Source: Alphaproteobacteria bacterium (lineage in GTDB: Bacteria; Pseudomonadota; Alphaproteobacteria; SP197). From it: a DNA stretch of 64,000 nucleotides. The stretch spans positions 2,839,964 through 2,903,963 of the forward strand of contig OZ245842.1 of NCBI GenBank assembly GCA_965228895.1. The letters are read 5' to 3'. Positions within the stretch are counted from its first letter, which is position 1, and every line of letters starts with the position of its first letter. A model generated the notes under the pieces. The model had not been told where the DNA came from. It did no database searches and was given only the letters and a program-made list of their open reading frames with translations. The translations under genes were made by a program, and so were the position numbers. Positions 5,712 through 38,737 of this stretch are shown here, one piece after another.

Positions 5712-7808
5712 TTAACCTTCGATCCTGGAGAAGTCGGCCACACGGTCGAGCGCATGGCGAATACCTGATAGCAGACGCAGGCGGTTTTGACGCAAGCCAG
5801 CGTCGTCGCAATTGACAGTCACCTCATCAAAAAACGCATCGACCGGTGCGCGAAGACCGGAAAGCGCCGCCATGGCATCGGCGAAACGTTCTTCGTTCAG
5901 GGCCTCATCAGCCTGACTTGCGGCCTCCGCGAGCCCGGCGACAACGGCCTTTTCTTCGTCCTCTTCAAGCGCGCTCGTGTCGACGTTGCCATCATAGACG
6001 ACGCCGTCCTTCTTTTCCTCGATCTTCACGATGTTGCCGGCACGCCGATAGGCGGTCAGCAGGTTGGCGCCGTCCTCGCTCGCCAGGAACGCGCCCAACG
6101 CTTCGACCTTGGCGAGCAGGCGCACCAGATCGTCTTCACCGCTTTGTGCAAACACCGCATCAATGAGGTCGTGACGCACGCCCTCGCCGCGCAGATGCAC
6201 CTTCAACCGGTCGGCGATGAAGGCGAGTAGCTCGACGTTCTGCGTTATGACACCTTTGTCACGTCCCGGCCAACTGACCATCCCGCGCCCGTCGGGTTTG
6301 TACAGTTCGACCGCCAATTCAAAAGCGTCCATCAATCCAACTCGTAGTCCGTTTTCCACGACAAGTCGGATTAGACCAAGCGCAGCGCGCCGCAGGGCGA
6401 AGGGATCTTTCGAACCAGTTGGTTTCTCTTGGATCAAGAAAAACCCTACCAGCGTATCGATCTTATCCGCCAATGCGACGGCCACGCTTTCCGGTGCGCT
6501 GGGGCAAACATCGCCCGGCCCTTGAGGCGCATAGTGTTCGGCGATGGCCAAGGCGACGGCGTCATCCTCGCCGTCATGGCGGGCGTAGTAGGACCCCATC
6601 AGGCCTTGAAGATCGGGGAACTCGCCGACCATCTCGGTGGTCAGGTCGGCTTTGGCGAGGTTTGCGGCGCGGGCGGCCTTCTCGGCATCGCAATCCGGAA
6701 TCGCCTCGGCCAGCCGTCGCGCGAGCTTGATGAGGCGCGTTGTCTTGTTCGCGACCGTACCAAGCTTGGCGTGAAACACCACGGCACCCAGATCGTCGAC
6801 GCGATCTGCAAGCTCCCGCTTGCGGTCCTGATCCCAGAAATGACGGGCGTCTGCGAGGCGCGCGTTCAGCACCCGCTCGTTGCCGCCGGTGACCGTCTTG
6901 CCGTCGTCGAGGCCCGGCGCGTTGGCGGCAAAGATGAAACGCGGCGCGAGCTTTCCCTGCCTGTCGCGCACCGGCAGATAGCGTTGGTGGGAGGTCATGG
7001 AGCTGACCAGGACTTCCGGCGGCACTTCCATGAAGGCATCGTCGAAGGAGCCCATCAGCACGACCGGCCACTCGACCAGGCCGGCGATCTCGTCGAATAG
7101 GCCCTTCGGCGCGTCGACGGCAAGGCCGGCCTCTGTCGCCAGACGCGCCGCGCCCTCTTCGACCAACGCGCGCCGCTCGCCGCCTTCGAGCACGACCTTG
7201 GCCTCGCGCAGTTTCGTCTCATAGTCGGCGAACCCCGATACCGAAAACGCGCCGGGCGCCAGGAACCGATGCCCCTCGGTCTCGTCGCCCGATGTCACGG
7301 GACCGAAGGCGAACGGCACGACGGCGCCGTCGAACAGGGCGGTGATGCGGTGCATGGGCCGGACCCAGCGTTCGTCATGATCGCCCCAGCGCATGGATTT
7401 CGGCCACGGCAGCGCGGCCATGGTGGCGGGCAGGATCTCGGCCAGCACCTCGCCGGTCGCCCGGCCCTGACGTTCGACCACGGCGAACCAGCAGGGACCC
7501 TTGTCAGTATCGCGTTCGACGAGGTCGCCGGCGGCAATCCCGGCGGAGCGCGCAAACCCTTCGACCGCCTTGTCCGGTGCGCCGACCTTCGGGCCCTTAC
7601 GCTCTTCCTTCAGGTCTGGCTGGCTCGCTGCCAGACCGTCGATCACGAGGGTCAGCCGGCGTGGCGTGGCGAAATGGCGCGCGGGCTCGTGCTCAAGCCG
7701 CGCCTCGCCAAGCGCCTTGGTAACAAGGTCCGCAAGATCGCCCGCGGCGCGTTCCTGCATGCGCGCGGGGATCTCCTCGGAGAAGATTTCAAACAGAAGC
7801 TCAGCCAT
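5712..7808 (-). CDS. glyS: Glycine--tRNA ligase beta subunit
   Basis: The product is 698 aa. The N-terminus [18 protein letters not shown] is classic GlyS. The start overlaps the glyQ stop. Confidence 0.95.
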
Positions 7809-21694: not shown

Positions 21695-22588
21695 TCAGGC
21701 CGCCTTTTCCGCCAGCACCTTCGCCATGGTTGAGCCAAGCTCGGCCGGGCTTGGCGCCACGGCAATGCCGGCTTCCTTCAGGATCTCGACCTTTTCAGCG
21801 GCGCTTTCGCCGAATGCCGAGATGATCGCGCCAGCATGGCCCATCTTGCGGCCCTTCGGCGCGGTCAGGCCGGCGACATAAGCCACCACCGGCTTCGACA
21901 TGTTCTCCTTGGCGAACTGGGCGGCCTCGGCTTCCTGGGGACCGCCGATCTCGCCGATCATCATGACCGCGTGGGTTTCCGGATCCTGCTCGAACAGCTC
22001 CAGGATGTCGCGGAACGAGCTGCCGTTGATCGGATCGCCGCCGATGCCGACGCTGGTCGAAATACCGATGCCGAGATCCTGCATCTGCGACGCCGCTTCA
22101 TAACCCAGCGTGCCCGAGCGGCCGACAATACCGATATTGCCCTGGGCATAGATGTGGCCGGGCATGATGCCCATCATCGCCTTGCCCGGGCTAATGACGC
22201 CGGCGCAGTTGGGTCCGATCAGACGCATGCGCTTCTCGTAGCGGTAGCGACGCATATAGCGCTTCACATGCATCATGTCCTGGGCCGGGATGCCGTCGGT
22301 GATGGAGACGCAGAAGCTGATGCCGGCGTCCGCGGCCTCCATGATCGAGTCCGCGGCAAACGGCGGCGGCACCAGCACCAGACTGGCTTGCGCGCCGGTC
22401 TCACGCACCGCGTCCTTGACCGTGTTGAAGACCGGCTTGCCCAGATGGGTGGTGCCGCCTTTGCCCGGCGTCACCCCGCCGACCACGTTGGTGCCGTAGT
22501 CGATGGCTTCCTGGGCATGGAAGGTGCCGGTCTTGCCGGTGAAACCCTGCACGATGACCGGTGTCGTTTCGTTGAGAAGAATGCTCAT
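21695..22588 (-). CDS. mtkB: Malate--CoA ligase (malate thiokinase) beta/small subunit; SucD paralog
   Basis: The SucD fold is present (GFTGKTGTFH, SRSGTLGYEA-type, GHAGAII). It also carries SITDGIPAQDMMHVKRYMRRYRYEKR, which I recall as MtkB-like rather than SucD-like. It is adjacent to mtkA-like and sga-like genes. Confidence 0.6.
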   Translation of the reverse strand: MSILLNETTPVIVQGFTGKTGTFHAQEAIDYGTNVVGGVTPGKGGTTHLGKPVFNTVKDAVRETGAQASLVLVPPPFAADSIMEAADAGISFCVSITDGIPAQDMMHVKRYMRRYRYEKRMRLIGPNCAGVISPGKAMMGIMPGHIYAQGNIGIVGRSGTLGYEAASQMQDLGIGISTSVGIGGDPINGSSFRDILELFEQDPETHAVMMIGEIGGPQEAEAAQFAKENMSKPVVAYVAGLTAPKGRKMGHAGAIISAFGESAAEKVEILKEAGIAVAPSPAELGSTMAKVLAEKAA

Positions 22589-22592
22589 CGCC

Positions 22593-23771
22593 TCACCCCT
22601 TCCCCGTCGCTTGTTTCCACGCGGCGACCGCCTTGTCGGCGGCATCGGCCAGCGTGTCGGCGGTGATGATATCCAGGCCGCTGTCGTCGAGAATCTTGCG
22701 GCCCTGCTCCACGTTGGTGCCGGCCAGACGCACGACCAGCGGCACGTCGATCTTGGTCGTCGTCACCGCCTGCACAACACCCTCGGCGACCCAGTCGCAC
22801 CGGTTGATGCCGGCGAAGATATTCACAAGGATCGCCTCGACGCCGTCGTCAGACAGCACAAGGTTGAACGCCTTGGTGACGCGCTCGGGCGAGGCGCCGC
22901 CGCCGATATCCAGGAAGTTCGCGGGCTCGCCCCCGGCATGCTTGATCATGTCCATGGTCGCCATGGCAAGACCGGCGCCGTTGATGATGCAGCCGATATT
23001 GCCGTCCAAGCCGACATAGCTGAGACCGCGGTCGGCGGCATCGCGCTCGCGGATATCCTCCTGCGACTTGTCGCGCAGCTCCGAGACGTTGGGACGGCGG
23101 AACAGCGCGTTGTCGTCGAAGGTCATCTTGGCGTCGAGTGCCAAGAGGTGTCCGTCGACAGTCACGACCAACGGATTGATCTCGACCATCGTCGCGTCGA
23201 GATCGGTGAAGGCGCGGTAGCAACCCTGCAGGATCTGCGTCATCTGCGCCACCTGCGCGGTGTCGAGCCCAAGCCCAAAGGCCATCTCGCGCGCCTGGAA
23301 CGCCTCCATACCGATGGCCGGATCGACGCTTGCGCGGATAATCGAGTCGGGTTTCTCTTCCGCGATTTCTTCGATCTCCATGCCGCCGGCGGCCGAGGCC
23401 ACGACCATGATGCGTTCGGATTTGCGGTCGAGCACGAGACCCAGATAGATCTCGCGGTCGAACGGCGTCGCTTCCTCGACATAGAGCCGGTGGATCAATT
23501 TGCCGCGCGGTCCCGTCTGGATCGTCTCCAGGCGTTTGCCGAGCAACGCGTCGGCGGCGTCCCAGACTTCGTGCTGGTCGCCGCACATCAAGACGCCACC
23601 GGCTTTGCCGCGCGCGCCGCTGTGGATCTGTGCCTTGACGACCCAGCGTTCGCCGCCCAGTTCCTGCGAACGATAGGCAGCCTGTTCAGGGCTGTAGGCA
23701 AGCCCGCCTCGCGGCACGGGCACACCGAAGTCGGCCAAGAGTTCCTTGGCCTGATACTCGTGAATGTCCAT
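22593..23771 (-). CDS. mtkA: Malate--CoA ligase (malate thiokinase) alpha/large subunit; SucC paralog
   Basis: [17 protein letters not shown] marks the ATP-grasp N-terminus. [17 protein letters not shown] replaces the SucC-type GGIVRCD motif, which from memory matches Methylobacterium MtkA. No mdh or sucAB gene is nearby. Confidence 0.6.
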
Positions 23772-23823
23772 CTGTCCCCTCCCCGGACCCGCCATAAAGG
23801 CGGGCGATGTTTAACCGGGCTTT

Positions 23824-25014
23824 TTACTCGGCAGCTTGCGCTAGCACCTCGCTGCCTTCCCGGTACCACGATTGGGCGGCGGCGACACCCGATCCCAATT
23901 CTACGGCAATGCCCGCATCGCGCATCGCCATTTCAGCACCGGCGATAGCACTGATCAGCATCAACTCGGTGACACTGCCCAAGTGGCCGATGCGAAATAC
24001 CTTACCTGAAAGCTGCGCCAGGCCGGTGCCCAGCGACAGACCGTAACGGTGGTAGGCGCCGGTGATGACCGCGGTCGCATCCCCGCCTTCGGGGACACGG
24101 ATGGCGCTGACCGTGTCAGACCGCCACTGCGGTCCGGCCGAAACCAGCTCCATATCCCAGGCCTGGACGGCACGACGCACGCCTTCGGCCATGCGGTAGT
24201 GGCGGGCGAAGACGTTGTCGAGCCCTTCTTCCAGCAACAGGTCGAGCGAGGCGCGCAGACCGCGCATCAGGCCGACGGCGGGCGTATAGGGGAAGAAGCC
24301 GCTGCGATTGAGCGTCAGCATGGCGTCGAAATCGAAATAGCACCGCGGCAGTTGCGCCGACTTTGCGGCTTCCAGACCACGCTGGCTGACGGCGATCAGC
24401 GCCAGGCCTGGCGGCAGCATGAAACCTTTCTGCGAACCGCTGACCGCGCAATCGACACCCCACTCGTCCATGCGGAAATCGATACTGGCGATCGAGCTGA
24501 CGCCGTCGACGAACAGCAGGGCCGGATGACCGGCGTCGTCGAGTACGCGGCGCACGCCGGGAATGTCGCTGGTGACACCGGTCGCCGTCTCGTTGTGACA
24601 GGCGAGCACCGCCTTGATCTCGTGGCCTTTGTCGGCGCCAAGGATGTCGGCGAACTGATCGAGCGGCACGCCTTCGCCCCACGGCACGTCAGCGGTGACG
24701 ACCTCAAGCCCCAGGCGCTCACACATCTCCGCCCATAGCATGGAGAACTGGCCGAAGCGGCTGGTCAGCACCTTGTCGCCCGGCGACAGCATGTTGGTCA
24801 GCGCGGCTTCCCAGCCGCCGGTGCCGGATGCCGGAAAGATCAGGGCTTCGCCGGTCTCGGTCTTGAAGACGCGTTTCAGGTCTGCAAACAGCGGCAGCGT
24901 GAAATCGGGGAAGTCGGGCGCCCGCTGGTCCTCCATGGGAACATCCAGCGCGCGGCGCACCGCTTCGGGAAGGTTGGTCGGGCCCGGAATAAAAATCGGG
25001 TTCTGGGTCGGCAT
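23824..25014 (-). CDS. sga: Class-V aminotransferase, serine--glyoxylate aminotransferase-like
   Basis: IFIPGPTNLPEAV, NETATGVTSDI, LLFVDGVSSIASIDFRMDEWGVDCAVSGSQKGFMLPPGL (PLP lysine in SGSQK) and KVFRIGHLG are all present. It strongly resembles the Sga/AGXT family as I remember it. Confidence 0.75.
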   Translation of the reverse strand: MPTQNPIFIPGPTNLPEAVRRALDVPMEDQRAPDFPDFTLPLFADLKRVFKTETGEALIFPASGTGGWEAALTNMLSPGDKVLTSRFGQFSMLWAEMCERLGLEVVTADVPWGEGVPLDQFADILGADKGHEIKAVLACHNETATGVTSDIPGVRRVLDDAGHPALLFVDGVSSIASIDFRMDEWGVDCAVSGSQKGFMLPPGLALIAVSQRGLEAAKSAQLPRCYFDFDAMLTLNRSGFFPYTPAVGLMRGLRASLDLLLEEGLDNVFARHYRMAEGVRRAVQAWDMELVSAGPQWRSDTVSAIRVPEGGDATAVITGAYHRYGLSLGTGLAQLSGKVFRIGHLGSVTELMLISAIAGAEMAMRDAGIAVELGSGVAAAQSWYREGSEVLAQAAE

Positions 25015-25288
25015 GGCCAGCACTCCCATCGCGAGTCGTCAAGGGAATCGCCCTATAACGACTCGCGTGACTTCCTACTAGGCAAACCAATTTACAAGTA
25101 GGAAACAGGCAGATTCGGGCGCGTTTTGGATTGAAACAGACCAATTTCGTGGTGATCTGGGCCGAAAACCGCACTTCTCGGATCGCGCCAGACACCAACT
25201 AGACCAAACATGCGAATCGGATTCGTTTGCCGACCAATTTAGACCGAGCCCTAAGGTGGCCATTGGCTGGCAGGCCGGTTGGCGGGTT

Positions 25289-25428
25289 CTAGAGCAGATC
25301 CCGTTTTGATGGAATCGCTTCGCGATGCCGTCAAGACGGGTGAATCCGCTCTATTCATCGATAGAGAGCGGATTCACGCCGTTAGGGGGAACCGTCAAAC
25401 GGTTCCCCCTAACGACGATCCGCTCTAG
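25289..25428. repeat. 140-bp TA-flanked mosaic palindromic element (MITE/RIME-like), copy 1
   Basis: The terminal inverted repeats are ctagagcagatc / gatccgctctag. Three internal hairpins lie between them. A near-identical copy is at 38598-38737 in the same orientation. Confidence 0.8.
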
Positions 25429-25646
25429 CCCTTGGAATCGCTGGAGAACATGCGTTCGATCCGAACGGCAACGGCATCCAAGACGGAGAGCACCAGGAAG
25501 AAGACAAGAATGATGGGCAGGTATTTGAAATCGCTGACAAAGGTGCCCTTGATCTCGTCCTCCATCAACGGCCAGGCCTCGTACCCGCCATAGGCGAGAC
25601 CCGCGGTAACAATCGCGGCGAGGACGACGCGCAGCATCCAGGTCAT
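25425..25646 (-). CDS. Small membrane protein (73 aa), last gene of the Rieske/FRD operon
   Basis: From the ATG at 25646 the product is MTWMLRVVLAAIVTAGLAYGG...YLPIILVFFLVLSVLDAV, which gives two predicted TM helices. A 2-nt gap separates it from the upstream gene stop. Its stop codon lies inside the terminal repeat of the mosaic element. Confidence 0.5.
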   Translation of the reverse strand: MTWMLRVVLAAIVTAGLAYGGYEAWPLMEDEIKGTFVSDFKYLPIILVFFLVLSVLDAVAVRIERMFSSDSKG

Positions 25647-25648
25647 CG

Positions 25649-26434
25649 TCAAAAGACCTCGGCCGACGACAGGTCGACCTTGAAGACGAGAATATCGTCG
25701 CGGCGCTCGACCTCGCCTTCCAAGCTCACGCGAAGCGCAACGAGGTCGTAGTAGGCGTCCGGCAACGGTCCGCCGTCGGCATTGGCGAGCCACATGAAGT
25801 TCATGCCCTCGATCTCGCCGGTCGTGACGAACACGGGCGGCACGCCTCCCAAGAGACAGAGATCCGCGCAGGCCAGATGCGCCAGACCGTTGCCTGGGCG
25901 CATCGCGCCGGCGTAGCACTTGCCGTCGCAGATCTCGCCTTCCAGGCGCCAGTAGCCGAGCGATTCAGCGGCGGCCGGCGTGAAGTTCTGCTGGTCGGCG
26001 GTGAGCGTCGCCGCCGTCGGCGTCAGCTTCATGTTGTTGACGCCGCCGCGCACCACCAGCATGTCGAGTTCGCCGCGCCTGAGGAAGAAACCTTCGATAT
26101 CGACGATCTGGCCATCGAGCGGTTCGGCCGCGTTCATGACGCCCCACTTGCCCTGTCCGGTCAGCGGAATGGCGCGGGCTTCCTGATCACCGTCCGGCAT
26201 GACACGCAGGATCGGATAGGGCTGCAGTTCCACAATGCCGGTCAATGTCTTCAAGTTCGCCGCGCCGCCGATGAAACGGCCGTTGCCCGGGTCTGCGGTA
26301 CCGGCGCCAAGCGCAAATGCGACCACGGCGGCGATAACCAGAAGCGAGCCGGCGACAGCCGCCAGAAAAGCCATCAGGCGCGGCGGCACCTTGCGGGAAT
26401 ATCCGATGAAAAAGTCGTCATGCGAACTGGCCAT
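25649..26434 (-). CDS. Membrane-anchored protein of unknown function with two CxxxC motifs
   Basis: An N-terminal TM helix (LMAFLAAVAGSLLVIAAVVAFALGAG) is followed by a ~220-aa domain containing CDGKC and CADLC. The GGAGAGG Shine-Dalgarno sequence lies inside the end of the upstream gene, with a 2-nt gap. Confidence 0.55.
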   Translation of the reverse strand: MASSHDDFFIGYSRKVPPRLMAFLAAVAGSLLVIAAVVAFALGAGTADPGNGRFIGGAANLKTLTGIVELQPYPILRVMPDGDQEARAIPLTGQGKWGVMNAAEPLDGQIVDIEGFFLRRGELDMLVVRGGVNNMKLTPTAATLTADQQNFTPAAAESLGYWRLEGEICDGKCYAGAMRPGNGLAHLACADLCLLGGVPPVFVTTGEIEGMNFMWLANADGGPLPDAYYDLVALRVSLEGEVERRDDILVFKVDLSSAEVF

Positions 26435-26436
26435 GG

Positions 26437-27495
26437 TTAGGCCTCTCCAATCGTCACCGGCTCGATAAAGGTGCCGGGCGCCAATGGGTTGGGATCAAGC
26501 AGGATGCGCGACCCGTCCAGTTTCAAACGATAGGTCGGGATCTTCTCGGTGAACGGTGCGGGCGCGCAGCCATCGGCCGGGTTGTATTGGAAACCGTGCC
26601 AGGGACACGTGACGCAGCCGCCGATGATGCGGCCCTCGCCCAGCGGCCCGTTCTGATGCGCGCAAACATTGCCGACCGCCGAGAGTTTGCCGTCATAGCG
26701 GAACACGGCGACACGCTCGCCGTCTGTCAACGGCACGACGATCGCCTGGTTGTTGGGGATGTCGTCGACCTGGCCGGCTACCAGCCATGAACCGTCGCCC
26801 GCGCTTGTCGCAGCCCGGCGGTCGCGCCGTCTCTCCGCCAACGCGGCAGCCAGATGAAGTCCGACGACAGCGGTCACGCCGACGGCGACGATCAGCGGCA
26901 GCACCGGCCCGGTCTCCGCCTGCAACGCGCCGAACGCGATGTGCAGCACGATCGCGAGATAGGCCGCATAGACCAGCATGTGGATCGCCTTCCACACCGG
27001 CGGCGTCAGGAAACTCAGCCAGAAGTCATGACTGGTCACCGCCATGATGACGAGGATCAACAGAGCGAAGATGCCGAACGCCTCGAACGGGAATCCGAGA
27101 AGCTGATCATAGTTGGTGTTGGTGCCCAGCACCGCGACGTACTTGTCGAAGAACGGGCTGAACGAAAAGTAAATGCCGATGACGAAGCTGGCATGGATCA
27201 GCGCGACGATGCAGGTGATGACGCCGAAGTGGCGTCGATTGTAGACGAGCGGCAGGAAACGCCGATCGAGGCGCGCCAATGGACCGAGACACAAGATCAG
27301 ACTGAGCATCAGGAAGGCGCACGACCCGAACGCGCGCGCCTTGTAGATATTCCCGCTGACCGGCCGCGTCGTCGATTGATAGGCCGGCGCGATTTCCAGG
27401 AACATCCAGATGTAAACGAAGACACCAACCAACAAGACGGCGTCATAGATGATCTTGTTGCTGTTCCAGAGAACCGGCTGATAGCGCGCGCTCAT
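26437..27495 (-). CDS. Ferric-reductase-like transmembrane domain fused to a C-terminal Rieske [2Fe-2S] domain
   Basis: The protein has six predicted TM helices with paired histidines (HFGVITCIVALIH; HMLVYAAYLAIVLH), typical of dihaem FRD/YedZ-type domains. The C-terminal Rieske motif is CAHQNGPL...CPWHGFQY. The start is the ATG at 27495 (MSARYQPVLW). Confidence 0.75.
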   Translation of the reverse strand: MSARYQPVLWNSNKIIYDAVLLVGVFVYIWMFLEIAPAYQSTTRPVSGNIYKARAFGSCAFLMLSLILCLGPLARLDRRFLPLVYNRRHFGVITCIVALIHASFVIGIYFSFSPFFDKYVAVLGTNTNYDQLLGFPFEAFGIFALLILVIMAVTSHDFWLSFLTPPVWKAIHMLVYAAYLAIVLHIAFGALQAETGPVLPLIVAVGVTAVVGLHLAAALAERRRDRRAATSAGDGSWLVAGQVDDIPNNQAIVVPLTDGERVAVFRYDGKLSAVGNVCAHQNGPLGEGRIIGGCVTCPWHGFQYNPADGCAPAPFTEKIPTYRLKLDGSRILLDPNPLAPGTFIEPVTIGEA

Positions 27496-27653
27496 GGTGT
27501 GGATGCCTCCGCAGACGGCGCTTCGATTCGTTCGGCGCGGGTCTCCAGCGGCCCTTGCTGGCGGACCACCATGGCAACAAAAATGACAAGCGGCAGCAGA
27601 ACCGCAAGCGTCATCCAGATACGGGCATGGGTTCTTCGATGACCACGCTTCAT
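27492..27653 (-). CDS. Small membrane protein (53 aa), not in the supplied ORF track
   Basis: My translation is MKRGHRRTHARIWMTLAVLLPLVIFVAMVVRQQGPLETRAERIEAPSAEASTP. It has ATGA overlaps with both the upstream (27650) and downstream (27495) genes. It falls below the track's 60-aa cut-off. Confidence 0.45.
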   Translation of the reverse strand: MKRGHRRTHARIWMTLAVLLPLVIFVAMVVRQQGPLETRAERIEAPSAEASTP

Positions 27654-27865
27654 GACGGCCTCGCGCGTTCAAGCGCCATCCAGCGCAACAAAACGAGCGG
27701 CCACAAGACGATGCAGCCGGGTATCAACAGCGCGCGAAACACATACGAGCCGCGCGCACCCGGTTCGACACGATCAACGCCAATAATCAGAAATAGGGCC
27801 GCAACCCCAAGACCGACCCAGAAATAGATCTGGACGATCTGGATGATAAGGCTCGCCGTTTCCAC
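27650..27865 (-). CDS. Small membrane protein (71 aa), first gene of the Rieske/FRD operon
   Basis: It has a GTG start preceded by AAGGGGG. Two TM helices are predicted (IYFWVGLGVAALFLIIG; ALLIPGCIVLWPLVLL). Confidence 0.5.
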   Translation of the reverse strand: METASLIIQIVQIYFWVGLGVAALFLIIGVDRVEPGARGSYVFRALLIPGCIVLWPLVLLRWMALERARPS

Positions 27866-38597: not shown

Positions 38598-38737
38598 TTA
38601 GAGCAGATCCTGTTTTGATGAAATCGCTTCGCGATGCCAGCAAAGCAGGTGAATCTGCTCTACTCATAGATAGAGAGCGGATTCACATGGTTAGGTGGAA
38701 CCGCCAAACGGTTCCACCTAACCATGATCCGCTCTAG
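38598..38737. repeat. 140-bp TA-flanked mosaic palindromic element, copy 2
   Basis: It is collinear with copy 1 (25289-25428) in the same orientation. The differences within stems are compensatory or create T:G pairs. Confidence 0.8.

Follow-up and report, generated by a model that had tools for sequence, protein, structure and literature searches.

Among bacterial membrane proteins with a ferric reductase domain (FRD), extensions to the domain are electron-transfer modules, and only the YedZ family, now MsrQ, had been characterised when these proteins were surveyed (Zhang et al. 2013, PMC3591440); we found no later work on the Rieske-fused architecture. In the MsrPQ (YedYZ) system of E. coli, the gene for the FRD membrane protein lies beside that of a periplasmic partner and electrons exit toward the periplasm. 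The YedZ (MsrQ) group has three of the four canonical haem histidines and probably one haem, the four-His pattern being that of the di-haem 'long forms', and one bacterial FRD architecture (model M4) combines flavin mononucleotide (FMN) and Rieske domains according to the legend of the survey's domain-architecture figure (Zhang et al. 2013, PMC3591440). Here we describe a five-gene operon, P1-P2-P3-P4-P5, built around an FRD/Rieske fusion (P3) and located at positions 25425-27865 on the minus strand of a 64,000-nucleotide stretch of alphaproteobacterial DNA (assembly GCA_965228895.1, contig OZ245842.1, positions 2,839,964 to 2,903,963; hereafter the window). We propose, at what we judge to be an even chance, that its products form one inner-membrane complex in which electrons would travel from the cytoplasm to the periplasm via the Rieske domain of P3, two b haems and a metal centre in P4.

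The first gene, P1 (27865-27650, minus strand as are all five), has a GTG start and encodes 71 aa with two hydrophobic segments, and P2 (27653-27492) encodes a single-span protein of 53 aa. They are followed by P3 (27495-26437, 352 aa), by P4 (26434-25649, 261 aa), which has one membrane anchor and two OB-fold barrels, and by P5 (25646-25425, 73 aa), which has two membrane segments and an acidic loop. The junctions P1/P2 and P2/P3 are 4-nt overlaps (ATGA) and the junctions P3/P4 and P4/P5 are 2-nt gaps, and a GGAG/GAGG-like motif precedes each of the five starts, with AAGGGGG just upstream of the GTG of P1. A preliminary description of this DNA, made from the letters alone, had given the same coordinates and junctions for five minus-strand open reading frames (ORFs), and its membrane-segment counts from P1 to P5 (2, 1, 6, 1 and 2) were returned again by hydropathy analysis. 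A sigma-70 promoter scan upstream of P1 gave no match, such a scan being uninformative for this kind of organism. The exact sequences of all five products are present as called gene products in the public protein collection, including that of the 53-aa P2.

A scan for relatives of P4, taking one genome per species, returned at least 583 genomic stretches, and the best 80 loci were kept for the counts per locus given below. Nearly all of the 80 are from Alphaproteobacteria, with one Myxococcota metagenome-assembled genome (MAG); the genera include Roseibium/Labrenzia, Pseudovibrio, Rhizobium, Ciceribacter, Ruegeria, Roseobacter, Sulfitobacter, Filomicrobium, Kiloniella and Geminicoccus, alongside many MAGs. 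The five-gene system is found in thousands of mostly alphaproteobacterial genomes. Iterated profile searches over all ORFs of these loci detected P3 and P4 in every locus (80/80 each), P2 in 78/80, P1 in 76/80 (E-values of 1e-24 to 1e-33) and P5, after profile iteration only, in 73/80. The complete P1-P2-P3-P4-P5 set was present in 69 of the 80 loci, with constant order on a single strand, and the 4-nt overlap was kept between P2 and P3 in 60/78 loci and between P3 and P4 in 40/80, a conservation of order and coupling far beyond chance. The ratio of non-synonymous to synonymous substitutions (dN/dS), calculated against the closest relative (L001, 95% identity in P4), was 0.11 for P1, 0.08 for P2, 0.08 for P3, 0.045 for P4 and 0.35 for P5, showing that P1 and P2 are constrained like the large proteins and P5 less so. 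A lack of conservation of the small ORFs had been named beforehand as an observation that would speak against a real operon; these ORFs turned out to be conserved in relatives and under purifying selection, and all five ORFs are genuine genes.

Natural gene fusions join neighbouring members of the set. In 17-25 loci P1 and P2 are fused into a single three-helix ORF of about 124 aa, and a profile search of 1.84 billion representative proteins found at least three P3-P4 fusions (P0301, P0374 and P0380; 583-623 aa), each consisting of the FRD, the Rieske domain and the whole of P4. Both types of fusion point strongly, on genomic grounds, to physical cooperation of the products. In the P3-P4 fusions the P4 helix comes after the Rieske domain, and the two soluble domains must therefore lie on opposite sides of the membrane.

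P3 consists of a membrane domain of six helices (residues 13-221; 26833..27459, minus strand) and a Rieske [2Fe-2S] domain (residues 236-340; 26476..26790, minus strand). Both of the Pfam models that the preliminary description had put forward for a hidden Markov model search were matched: PF01794 (Ferric_reduct) at residues 57-182 (E = 5.6e-14, 52.7 bits against a cut-off of 28) and PF00355 (Rieske) at residues 236-322 (E = 3.9e-17, 62.4 bits against 20.3). At least 8000 homologues share this architecture. Among 30 homologues of about 60% identity, the histidines predicted to bind haem (H89 and H101 in TM3, H172 and H185 in TM5) are invariant, as are H156 and H214. Their spacing, 12-14 residues within each TM3 or TM5 pair, is that of FRD proteins, and as judged from the alignment the four-His arrangement is the classic two-haem pattern, with haem binding predicted. 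In the same homologues the Rieske ligands C278-x-H280 and C297-x-x-H300 are invariant at C278, H280 and C297, and H300 is present in at least 90%. The AlphaFold2 model (mean predicted local distance difference test score, pLDDT, of 81) showed six membrane helices followed by a beta-rich domain, consistent with the six-helix haem-domain fold of the FRD superfamily; by structural comparison the modelled membrane domain is nearest to STEAP and NOX proteins, with matches that include NOX5, NOX2, DUOX1 and the bacterial SpNOX. Pfam, hydropathy and alignment thus agree with the earlier picture of the 352-aa product as a protein of six transmembrane helices with two His...His pairs and a C-terminal Rieske domain.

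The Rieske boxes of P3 read C-A-H-Q-N-G-P and C-P-W-H-G. Because they lack the second cysteines that form the disulfide of bc1-type proteins, we assign the domain to the low-potential ferredoxin class. Its best PDB matches are the NDO, CarAc and BphA3 ferredoxins and its best NCBIfam matches AndAb and HcaC. The mean Lys+Arg count among homologues is 9.6 for the N-terminus, loops 2 and 4 and the segment that follows TM6 taken together, compared with 3.6 for the other three loops. Since basic residues cluster on its side, the Rieske domain is predicted to be cytoplasmic. A periplasmic Rieske domain exported by the twin-arginine translocation (Tat) pathway was considered and rejected: the basic stretch ERRRDRR stands after TM6 and not before it, the TM5-TM6 loop (QAETGP) is without a basic residue, and the charge bias is cytoplasmic.

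The P4 family is large (1174 matches at 90% clustering; 1967 clusters at 50% identity, 873 of them below 1e-30), and its members are named 'hypothetical' in every source. The AlphaFold2 model of P4 (pLDDT 84.9) consists of a membrane helix (residues 18-45) and tandem OB-fold barrels (52-139 and 157-260), preceded by a conserved short N-terminus (FF-x-G-Y) that is predicted to be cytoplasmic. Averaged over 128 representatives, the net charge falls from +2.0 ahead of the helix to -0.9 behind it, and a Tat consensus is absent from all of them; for these reasons the barrels are predicted to be periplasmic and exported unfolded. A signature at residues 166-199 (25838..25939, minus strand) marks a putative periplasmic metal site and reads G-E-I-C-D-G-K-C173-x2-G-x-M178-x-P-G-x4-H186-x2-C189-A-x2-C193-x2-G-G-x-P-P. 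Its core, Cys-x4-Met-x7-His-x2-Cys-x3-Cys, is invariant, and the residues that are invariant among 130 diverse representatives are K96, G166, D170, C173, G176, M178, P180, H186, C189 and C193. The preliminary description had pointed to the motifs CDGKC and CADLC in the membrane-anchored 261-aa protein; both are present, but the first cysteine of CDGKC (C169) is Cys in only 35% of the 130 representatives and Val or Ile in most others. The conserved site is therefore Cys3-His-Met and not two CxxxC pairs. For the same reason two CxxxC disulfides or a rubredoxin-like Cys4 site were rejected, as was a CDGSH/mitoNEET-like reading of CDGKC, which is not conserved across the family.

In the model, H186, C189 and C193 occupy positions i, i+3 and i+7 of the helix 184-195, and C173 and M178 fall within the only low-confidence loop of the domain. 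The odd number of conserved cysteines and the placement of ligands on one helix face argue against a purely disulfide role. To judge from its residues, the Cys3-His-Met set on a Sec-exported domain looks like a putative mononuclear soft-metal site; an Fe-S cluster could not be inserted into such a domain in the periplasm. A profile search with P4 against all PDB sequences gave no meaningful match. The TRASH/YHS domains, which we take to be of the form Cys-x(n)-Cys-x3-Cys, served as a lead on grounds of resemblance only: P4 has C-x15-C-x3-C compared with C-x19-22-C-x3-C in that class, and no Pfam match to it.

The remaining products are small. P1 carries the conserved motif G-x-D-R...Y-x-F-R-P-L-x-x-P-G...W-P-L-V-L-x-R-W, and P2 has a basic N-terminus (MKRGHRR) that is predicted to be cytoplasmic, a conserved R-Q right after the helix and an acidic C-terminal tail. 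As no conserved Cys, His or Met was found in P1, P2 or P5, these proteins are taken to be structural membrane subunits. Pfam and NCBIfam scans of P1, P2, P4 and P5 gave sub-threshold noise only, a Pfam scan of 12 natural P1-P2 fusions gave nothing consistent, and these four proteins belong to no described family. P5 was counted as a member of the set in the preliminary description, and its frequency among the 80 loci bears this out; it is, however, the least conserved of the five and is absent from Pseudovibrio (L009, 5753-5975), where a glutathione S-transferase-like gene follows. In a distant locus (L084, 8843-9190) a DUF1622 membrane protein occupies its position, and P5 is thus replaceable. 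We therefore regard P1-P4 as the core and P5 as a common accessory. In another distant locus, L082, equivalents of P1 and P2 are present in the DNA at 6427-6690 and 6712-6873, the latter overlapping the start of P3, and the source annotation lists neither of them as a gene, which makes under-annotation of the small subunits in public genomes probable.

Larger ORFs next to the operon in relatives were also matched by the P3 profile, through their Rieske domains. Two types were distinguished. Rieske-GltS-like proteins (about 538 aa; for example L009 1821-3437, L007 6039-7670 and L038 1937-3556) consist of an N-terminal Rieske domain and the FMN domain of glutamate synthase (PF01645). Rieske-POX-like proteins (about 660-668 aa; for example L003 1500-3506, L066 5982-8015, L082 8858-10840 and L086 3931-5925) consist of an N-terminal Rieske domain and a complete thiamine diphosphate (ThDP) enzyme, for which the best NCBIfam matches are pyruvate oxidase and the ubiquinone-dependent pyruvate dehydrogenase PoxB (E = 1e-115, below the equivalog cut-offs). 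In 42 of the 80 loci the five-gene set has one or both types no more than 3.5 kb away, mostly on its own strand and separated by -4 to about 50 nt, and either upstream or downstream; the Rieske-GltS-like protein is the commonest partner (39/80). Rieske-fused flavoenzymes also stood beside P3/P4 in four of six more distant contexts. In one, a P3-P4 fusion is followed immediately by a Rieske/FMN-reductase fusion; in another, P4 is followed immediately by a Rieske-POX-like gene; in a third, an FMN reductase gene and a Rieske-POX-like gene precede P1; and in the fourth, Rieske-GltS-like and Rieske-POX-like genes do so. Other neighbours were rejected as conserved partners, namely the short-chain dehydrogenase/reductase, luciferase-like, P450, desaturase and STAS proteins, which are clade-specific, and unknown proteins of 202 aa and 277 aa whose genes separate the POX-like gene from P1 in two distant loci and which are not homologous to each other.

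The Rieske-GltS-like family has at least 8,000 homologues, annotated only as 'glutamate synthase-related protein' or 'alpha-hydroxy-acid oxidizing protein'. The 119 homologues closest to a query from one related genome are 79-83% identical to it and come from many alphaproteobacterial genera, an identity higher than that among the best-listed matches of P3 (roughly 60-76%) and P4 (45-68%). No literature on the Rieske-GltS-like protein and no description of the Rieske-POX-like architecture was found. The domain content of the latter suggests a 2-oxoacid oxidase whose electrons would go to an Fe-S relay, and not to quinone or O2. The Rieske-fused flavoenzymes are probable electron donors to the five-gene complex, a reading in line with the FMN and Rieske domains given together for model M4 (PMC3591440). 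The preliminary description had called the set self-contained, and this part of it did not hold: there is no obvious electron entry point among the five products, and since donor-type flavoenzymes share the operon in relatives, the set is better seen as the membrane half of a larger system. Its central idea, of one membrane electron-transfer unit around the FRD/Rieske fusion, has by contrast gained from the conserved gene order, the selection on the small ORFs, the fusions, the invariant ligands and the STEAP/NOX-like fold.

In the mechanism that we propose, a cytoplasmic flavoenzyme would oxidise its substrate and pass the flavin electrons singly to its own Rieske domain, which would deliver them one by one to the cytoplasmic Rieske [2Fe-2S] domain of P3. 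In oxygenase systems, ferredoxins of this class normally pass electrons from one Rieske centre to another, and pyruvate oxidase and the relatives of PoxB are oxidative enzymes. From P3's cluster the electrons would pass to an inner b haem (His89/His172), to an outer b haem (His101/His185) and on to the periplasmic metal centre of P4, formed by Cys173, His186, Cys189 and Cys193 and capped by Met178; P1, P2 and P5 would be small structural membrane subunits without cofactor ligands. The P4 centre would then reduce a periplasmic acceptor. Because STEAP and FRE are reductases of Fe(III) and Cu(II), our best guess for this acceptor, by analogy, is a metal ion handled by P4, for instance Cu(II) or Fe(III). 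Outward movement of electrons is favoured by the membrane potential, as in NOX, FRE and STEAP, and to our knowledge the flow is outward in every characterised FRD enzyme (NOX, FRE, STEAP and MsrQ). A more far-reaching version, which we offer tentatively and consider rather doubtful, is that the operon encodes the membrane core of an unrecognised electron-export pathway widespread in Alphaproteobacteria, in which cytoplasmic flavoenzymes of the pyruvate-oxidase-like, glutamate-synthase-like and FMN-reductase-like types would dock via their N-terminal Rieske domains onto P3 and electrons from their substrates would reach a Cys3-His-Met centre of a new type in P4.

Several observations weigh against electron export by such a complex. 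The window is without a donor gene: tblastn with the Rieske-GltS-like and Rieske-POX-like proteins matched only P3's own Rieske domain in the 64 kb. The same is true of 38 of the 80 relatives within the flanks that were fetched, and the link to donors is therefore not universal in cis. A Rieske-GltS-like copy from this genome was not among the 120 matches listed, and the donors of this genome must be encoded outside the window. Neither the literature nor curated families yielded a description of the system or an experiment on any of its members; conversely, the thought that the fusion and the 261-aa protein might belong to an already characterised complex found no paper or curated family to support it. 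Moreover, PoxB-type enzymes normally reduce ubiquinone, and the true acceptor could therefore be a quinone and not a periplasmic substrate.

This last point leads to an explanation that we regard as unlikely but that merits attention, in which the complex would be a respiratory entry point, a Rieske-ferredoxin:quinone oxidoreductase that gathers electrons from Rieske-fused dehydrogenases and reduces ubiquinone in the membrane, with P4 and the small subunits shaping or stabilising the quinone site. It would fit the ThDP neighbour, which is closest to pyruvate oxidase and the ubiquinone-dependent PoxB, the hosts, which appear to be aerobic Alphaproteobacteria, and the FRD relative MsrQ, which exchanges electrons with the quinone pool (general knowledge; PMC5449189). 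However, a transmembrane wire of two haems would be unneeded for reducing quinone from the cytoplasmic side, and no role would be left for the Cys3-His-Met site and the two OB barrels of P4.

Electrons might also flow inward, with P4 oxidising periplasmic Fe(II), Cu(I) or a sulfur compound and the haems and Rieske domains feeding a reductive reaction of the Rieske-GltS-like protein. Glutamate synthase FMN domains are generally reductive with ferredoxin-type donors, and this protein is the most frequent partner in the 80 loci. Inward movement, however, would oppose the membrane potential, a low-potential Rieske domain would be a poor acceptor for high-potential periplasmic donors, and the POX-like and FMN-reductase partners produce electrons, so that we consider this direction very unlikely.

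We find it similarly hard to credit that O2 is the acceptor, reduced to superoxide, peroxide or water at the outer haem or at a copper site of P4, with the complex acting as a small alternative oxidase or generating reactive oxygen species. The nearness of the P3 fold to NOX5, NOX2, DUOX1 and SpNOX speaks for this, as does the position of the operon in locus L085 directly behind genes for an extracytoplasmic function (ECF) sigma factor and a Cupin_7 protein. Against it, NOX enzymes work without a periplasmic partner protein, the ECF link was seen in a single locus, and no copper-oxidase signature was found in P4 by Pfam, NCBIfam or the PDB profile search. Least probable of all is that the P4 cysteines form a redox disulfide/thiol system for periplasmic disulfide or sulfoxide repair, like DsbD or MsrPQ: although MsrPQ, the sole characterised bacterial FRD system, repairs periplasmic proteins (PMC3591440, PMC5449189) and the C189-x3-C193 pair is invariant, haems give single electrons while disulfide reduction takes two, C189 and C193 are four residues apart in a helix with poor disulfide geometry, three conserved cysteines (not two or four) with an invariant His and Met resemble metal ligands, and the P4 fold is not thioredoxin-like.

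Directly 3' of the operon, after the P5 stop, lies a double palindrome (25340..25412) with perfect hairpins at 25340-25377 and 25382-25412, the arms of which read GTGAATCCGCTCT...AGAGCGGATTCAC and then TTAGGGGGAACCGT...ACGGTTCCCCCTAA. A second copy of both hairpins is present 13 kb away at 38649-38721, with 0-2 mismatches per arm. The double palindrome looks like a repeated extragenic element (REP/MITE-like), and the copy at 25340-25412 may end the operon transcript. Directly downstream of the operon, on the same strand (21695-25029), are genes for a class-V aminotransferase and an ATP-grasp/CoA-ligase beta-alpha pair, a trio which by its Pfam content resembles serine-glyoxylate aminotransferase and malate thiokinase (or succinyl-CoA synthetase). 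By Pfam, the flanks of the operon in the window hold unrelated housekeeping genes (S49 peptidase, methyltransferase, polyprenyl synthase, class-V aminotransferase and CoA-ligase subunits), and a functional link to the upstream S49 peptidase was rejected, given that synteny was found in the two closest relatives only. Long plus-strand ORFs (26854-27642, 25877-26440 and 22503-23948; 187-481 aa) run antisense to P3, P4 and the CoA-ligase gene, and similar antisense 'families' appear when the ORFs of related loci are clustered; they were rejected as genes and are most likely shadow ORFs of GC-rich coding sequence. Among the relatives, the ECF sigma factor and Cupin_7 genes directly upstream of the operon in L085 (5185-6449) hint at stress regulation in this single case. 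We take this pair to be RpoE/ChrR-like (singlet-oxygen stress).

If the proposed electron path is right, several large families of proteins now called 'hypothetical' or 'glutamate synthase-related' would gain a role, cytoplasmic metabolism would be linked to the periplasm through the docking of one Rieske domain onto another, and a new periplasmic metal-centre fold would be added. The wider export pathway, if true, would represent either a new metalloreductase of bacteria or a new class of terminal redox enzyme. Experimental handles are the four haem histidines, the four Rieske ligands, the five residues of the P4 site and the natural fusions that fix the topology, and culturable hosts include Roseibium aggregatum, Pseudovibrio and Ruegeria.

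Compared with known periplasmic metal-binding proteins, P4 stands apart. Its fold scores against CusF/SilF and NlpE/CutF are no better than those against unrelated OB folds (PriB, SSB and potempins). By profile it is not a metallochaperone of the CusF/SilF type, in which a His/Met/Met(Trp) site sits in a single OB barrel; there is no sequence or Pfam relationship to these proteins, and the ligands of P4 are located in a loop-plus-helix insertion of the second barrel. P3 likewise differs from the Rieske proteins that are inserted by both Sec and Tat, which have a twin-arginine motif before the last helix (Tooke et al. 2017, PMC5449189), as no such motif precedes its last helix. The Rieske domain of P3 is instead closest to the Rieske ferredoxins (NDO 2QPZ, CarAc, BphA3/BphF, TodB and T4moC), with which it shares the fold, the ligands and the lack of the bc1-type disulfide (TM-score normalised to the target, 0.85-0.89). 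The oxygenase ferredoxins relay electrons from a flavoprotein reductase to another Rieske centre, and a relay from flavoenzymes to P3 is proposed here likewise. Those ferredoxins, however, are free, soluble and serve oxygenases, whereas P3 combines its Rieske domain with a haem membrane domain in one chain, and the operon encodes no oxygenase.

The membrane part of P3 invites comparison with NOX, FRE and STEAP, in which the cytoplasmic module is an FAD/NAD(P)H dehydrogenase domain, whereas that of P3 is a Rieske [2Fe-2S] ferredoxin domain, predicted on the side where the NOX dehydrogenase domain sits. Only Rieske-type Pfam models were found C-terminal to the FRD, with no FAD_binding or NAD_binding match in P3, which is therefore not a NOX/FRE enzyme. 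In contrast to those systems, the flavin donors here are separate proteins, and a dedicated periplasmic protein, P4, and three small subunits are present. With model M4, P3 shares its domain combination, which the survey only catalogued, without partners, operon, topology or function (PMC3591440). As regards MsrPQ, the match of P3 to the NCBIfam MsrQ model is weak (E = 1.4e-6, 28 bits against a cut-off of 130) and places it outside that family, and no MsrP gene is adjacent: P4 and P2 match no Pfam family, hence no molybdoenzyme, and the flanking genes are unrelated. MsrQ lacks the fused Rieske domain that P3 has; MsrP is a soluble, Tat-exported molybdoenzyme, whereas P4 is anchored in the membrane and combines two OB folds with a Cys3-His-Met site; and the five-gene set has three extra small subunits. 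The overall logic would not surprise a specialist in FRD proteins, but what is new about this FRD transmembrane conduit is its Rieske input, its periplasmic partner and its small subunits, and the operon defines a second bacterial FRD system that is much larger than MsrPQ.

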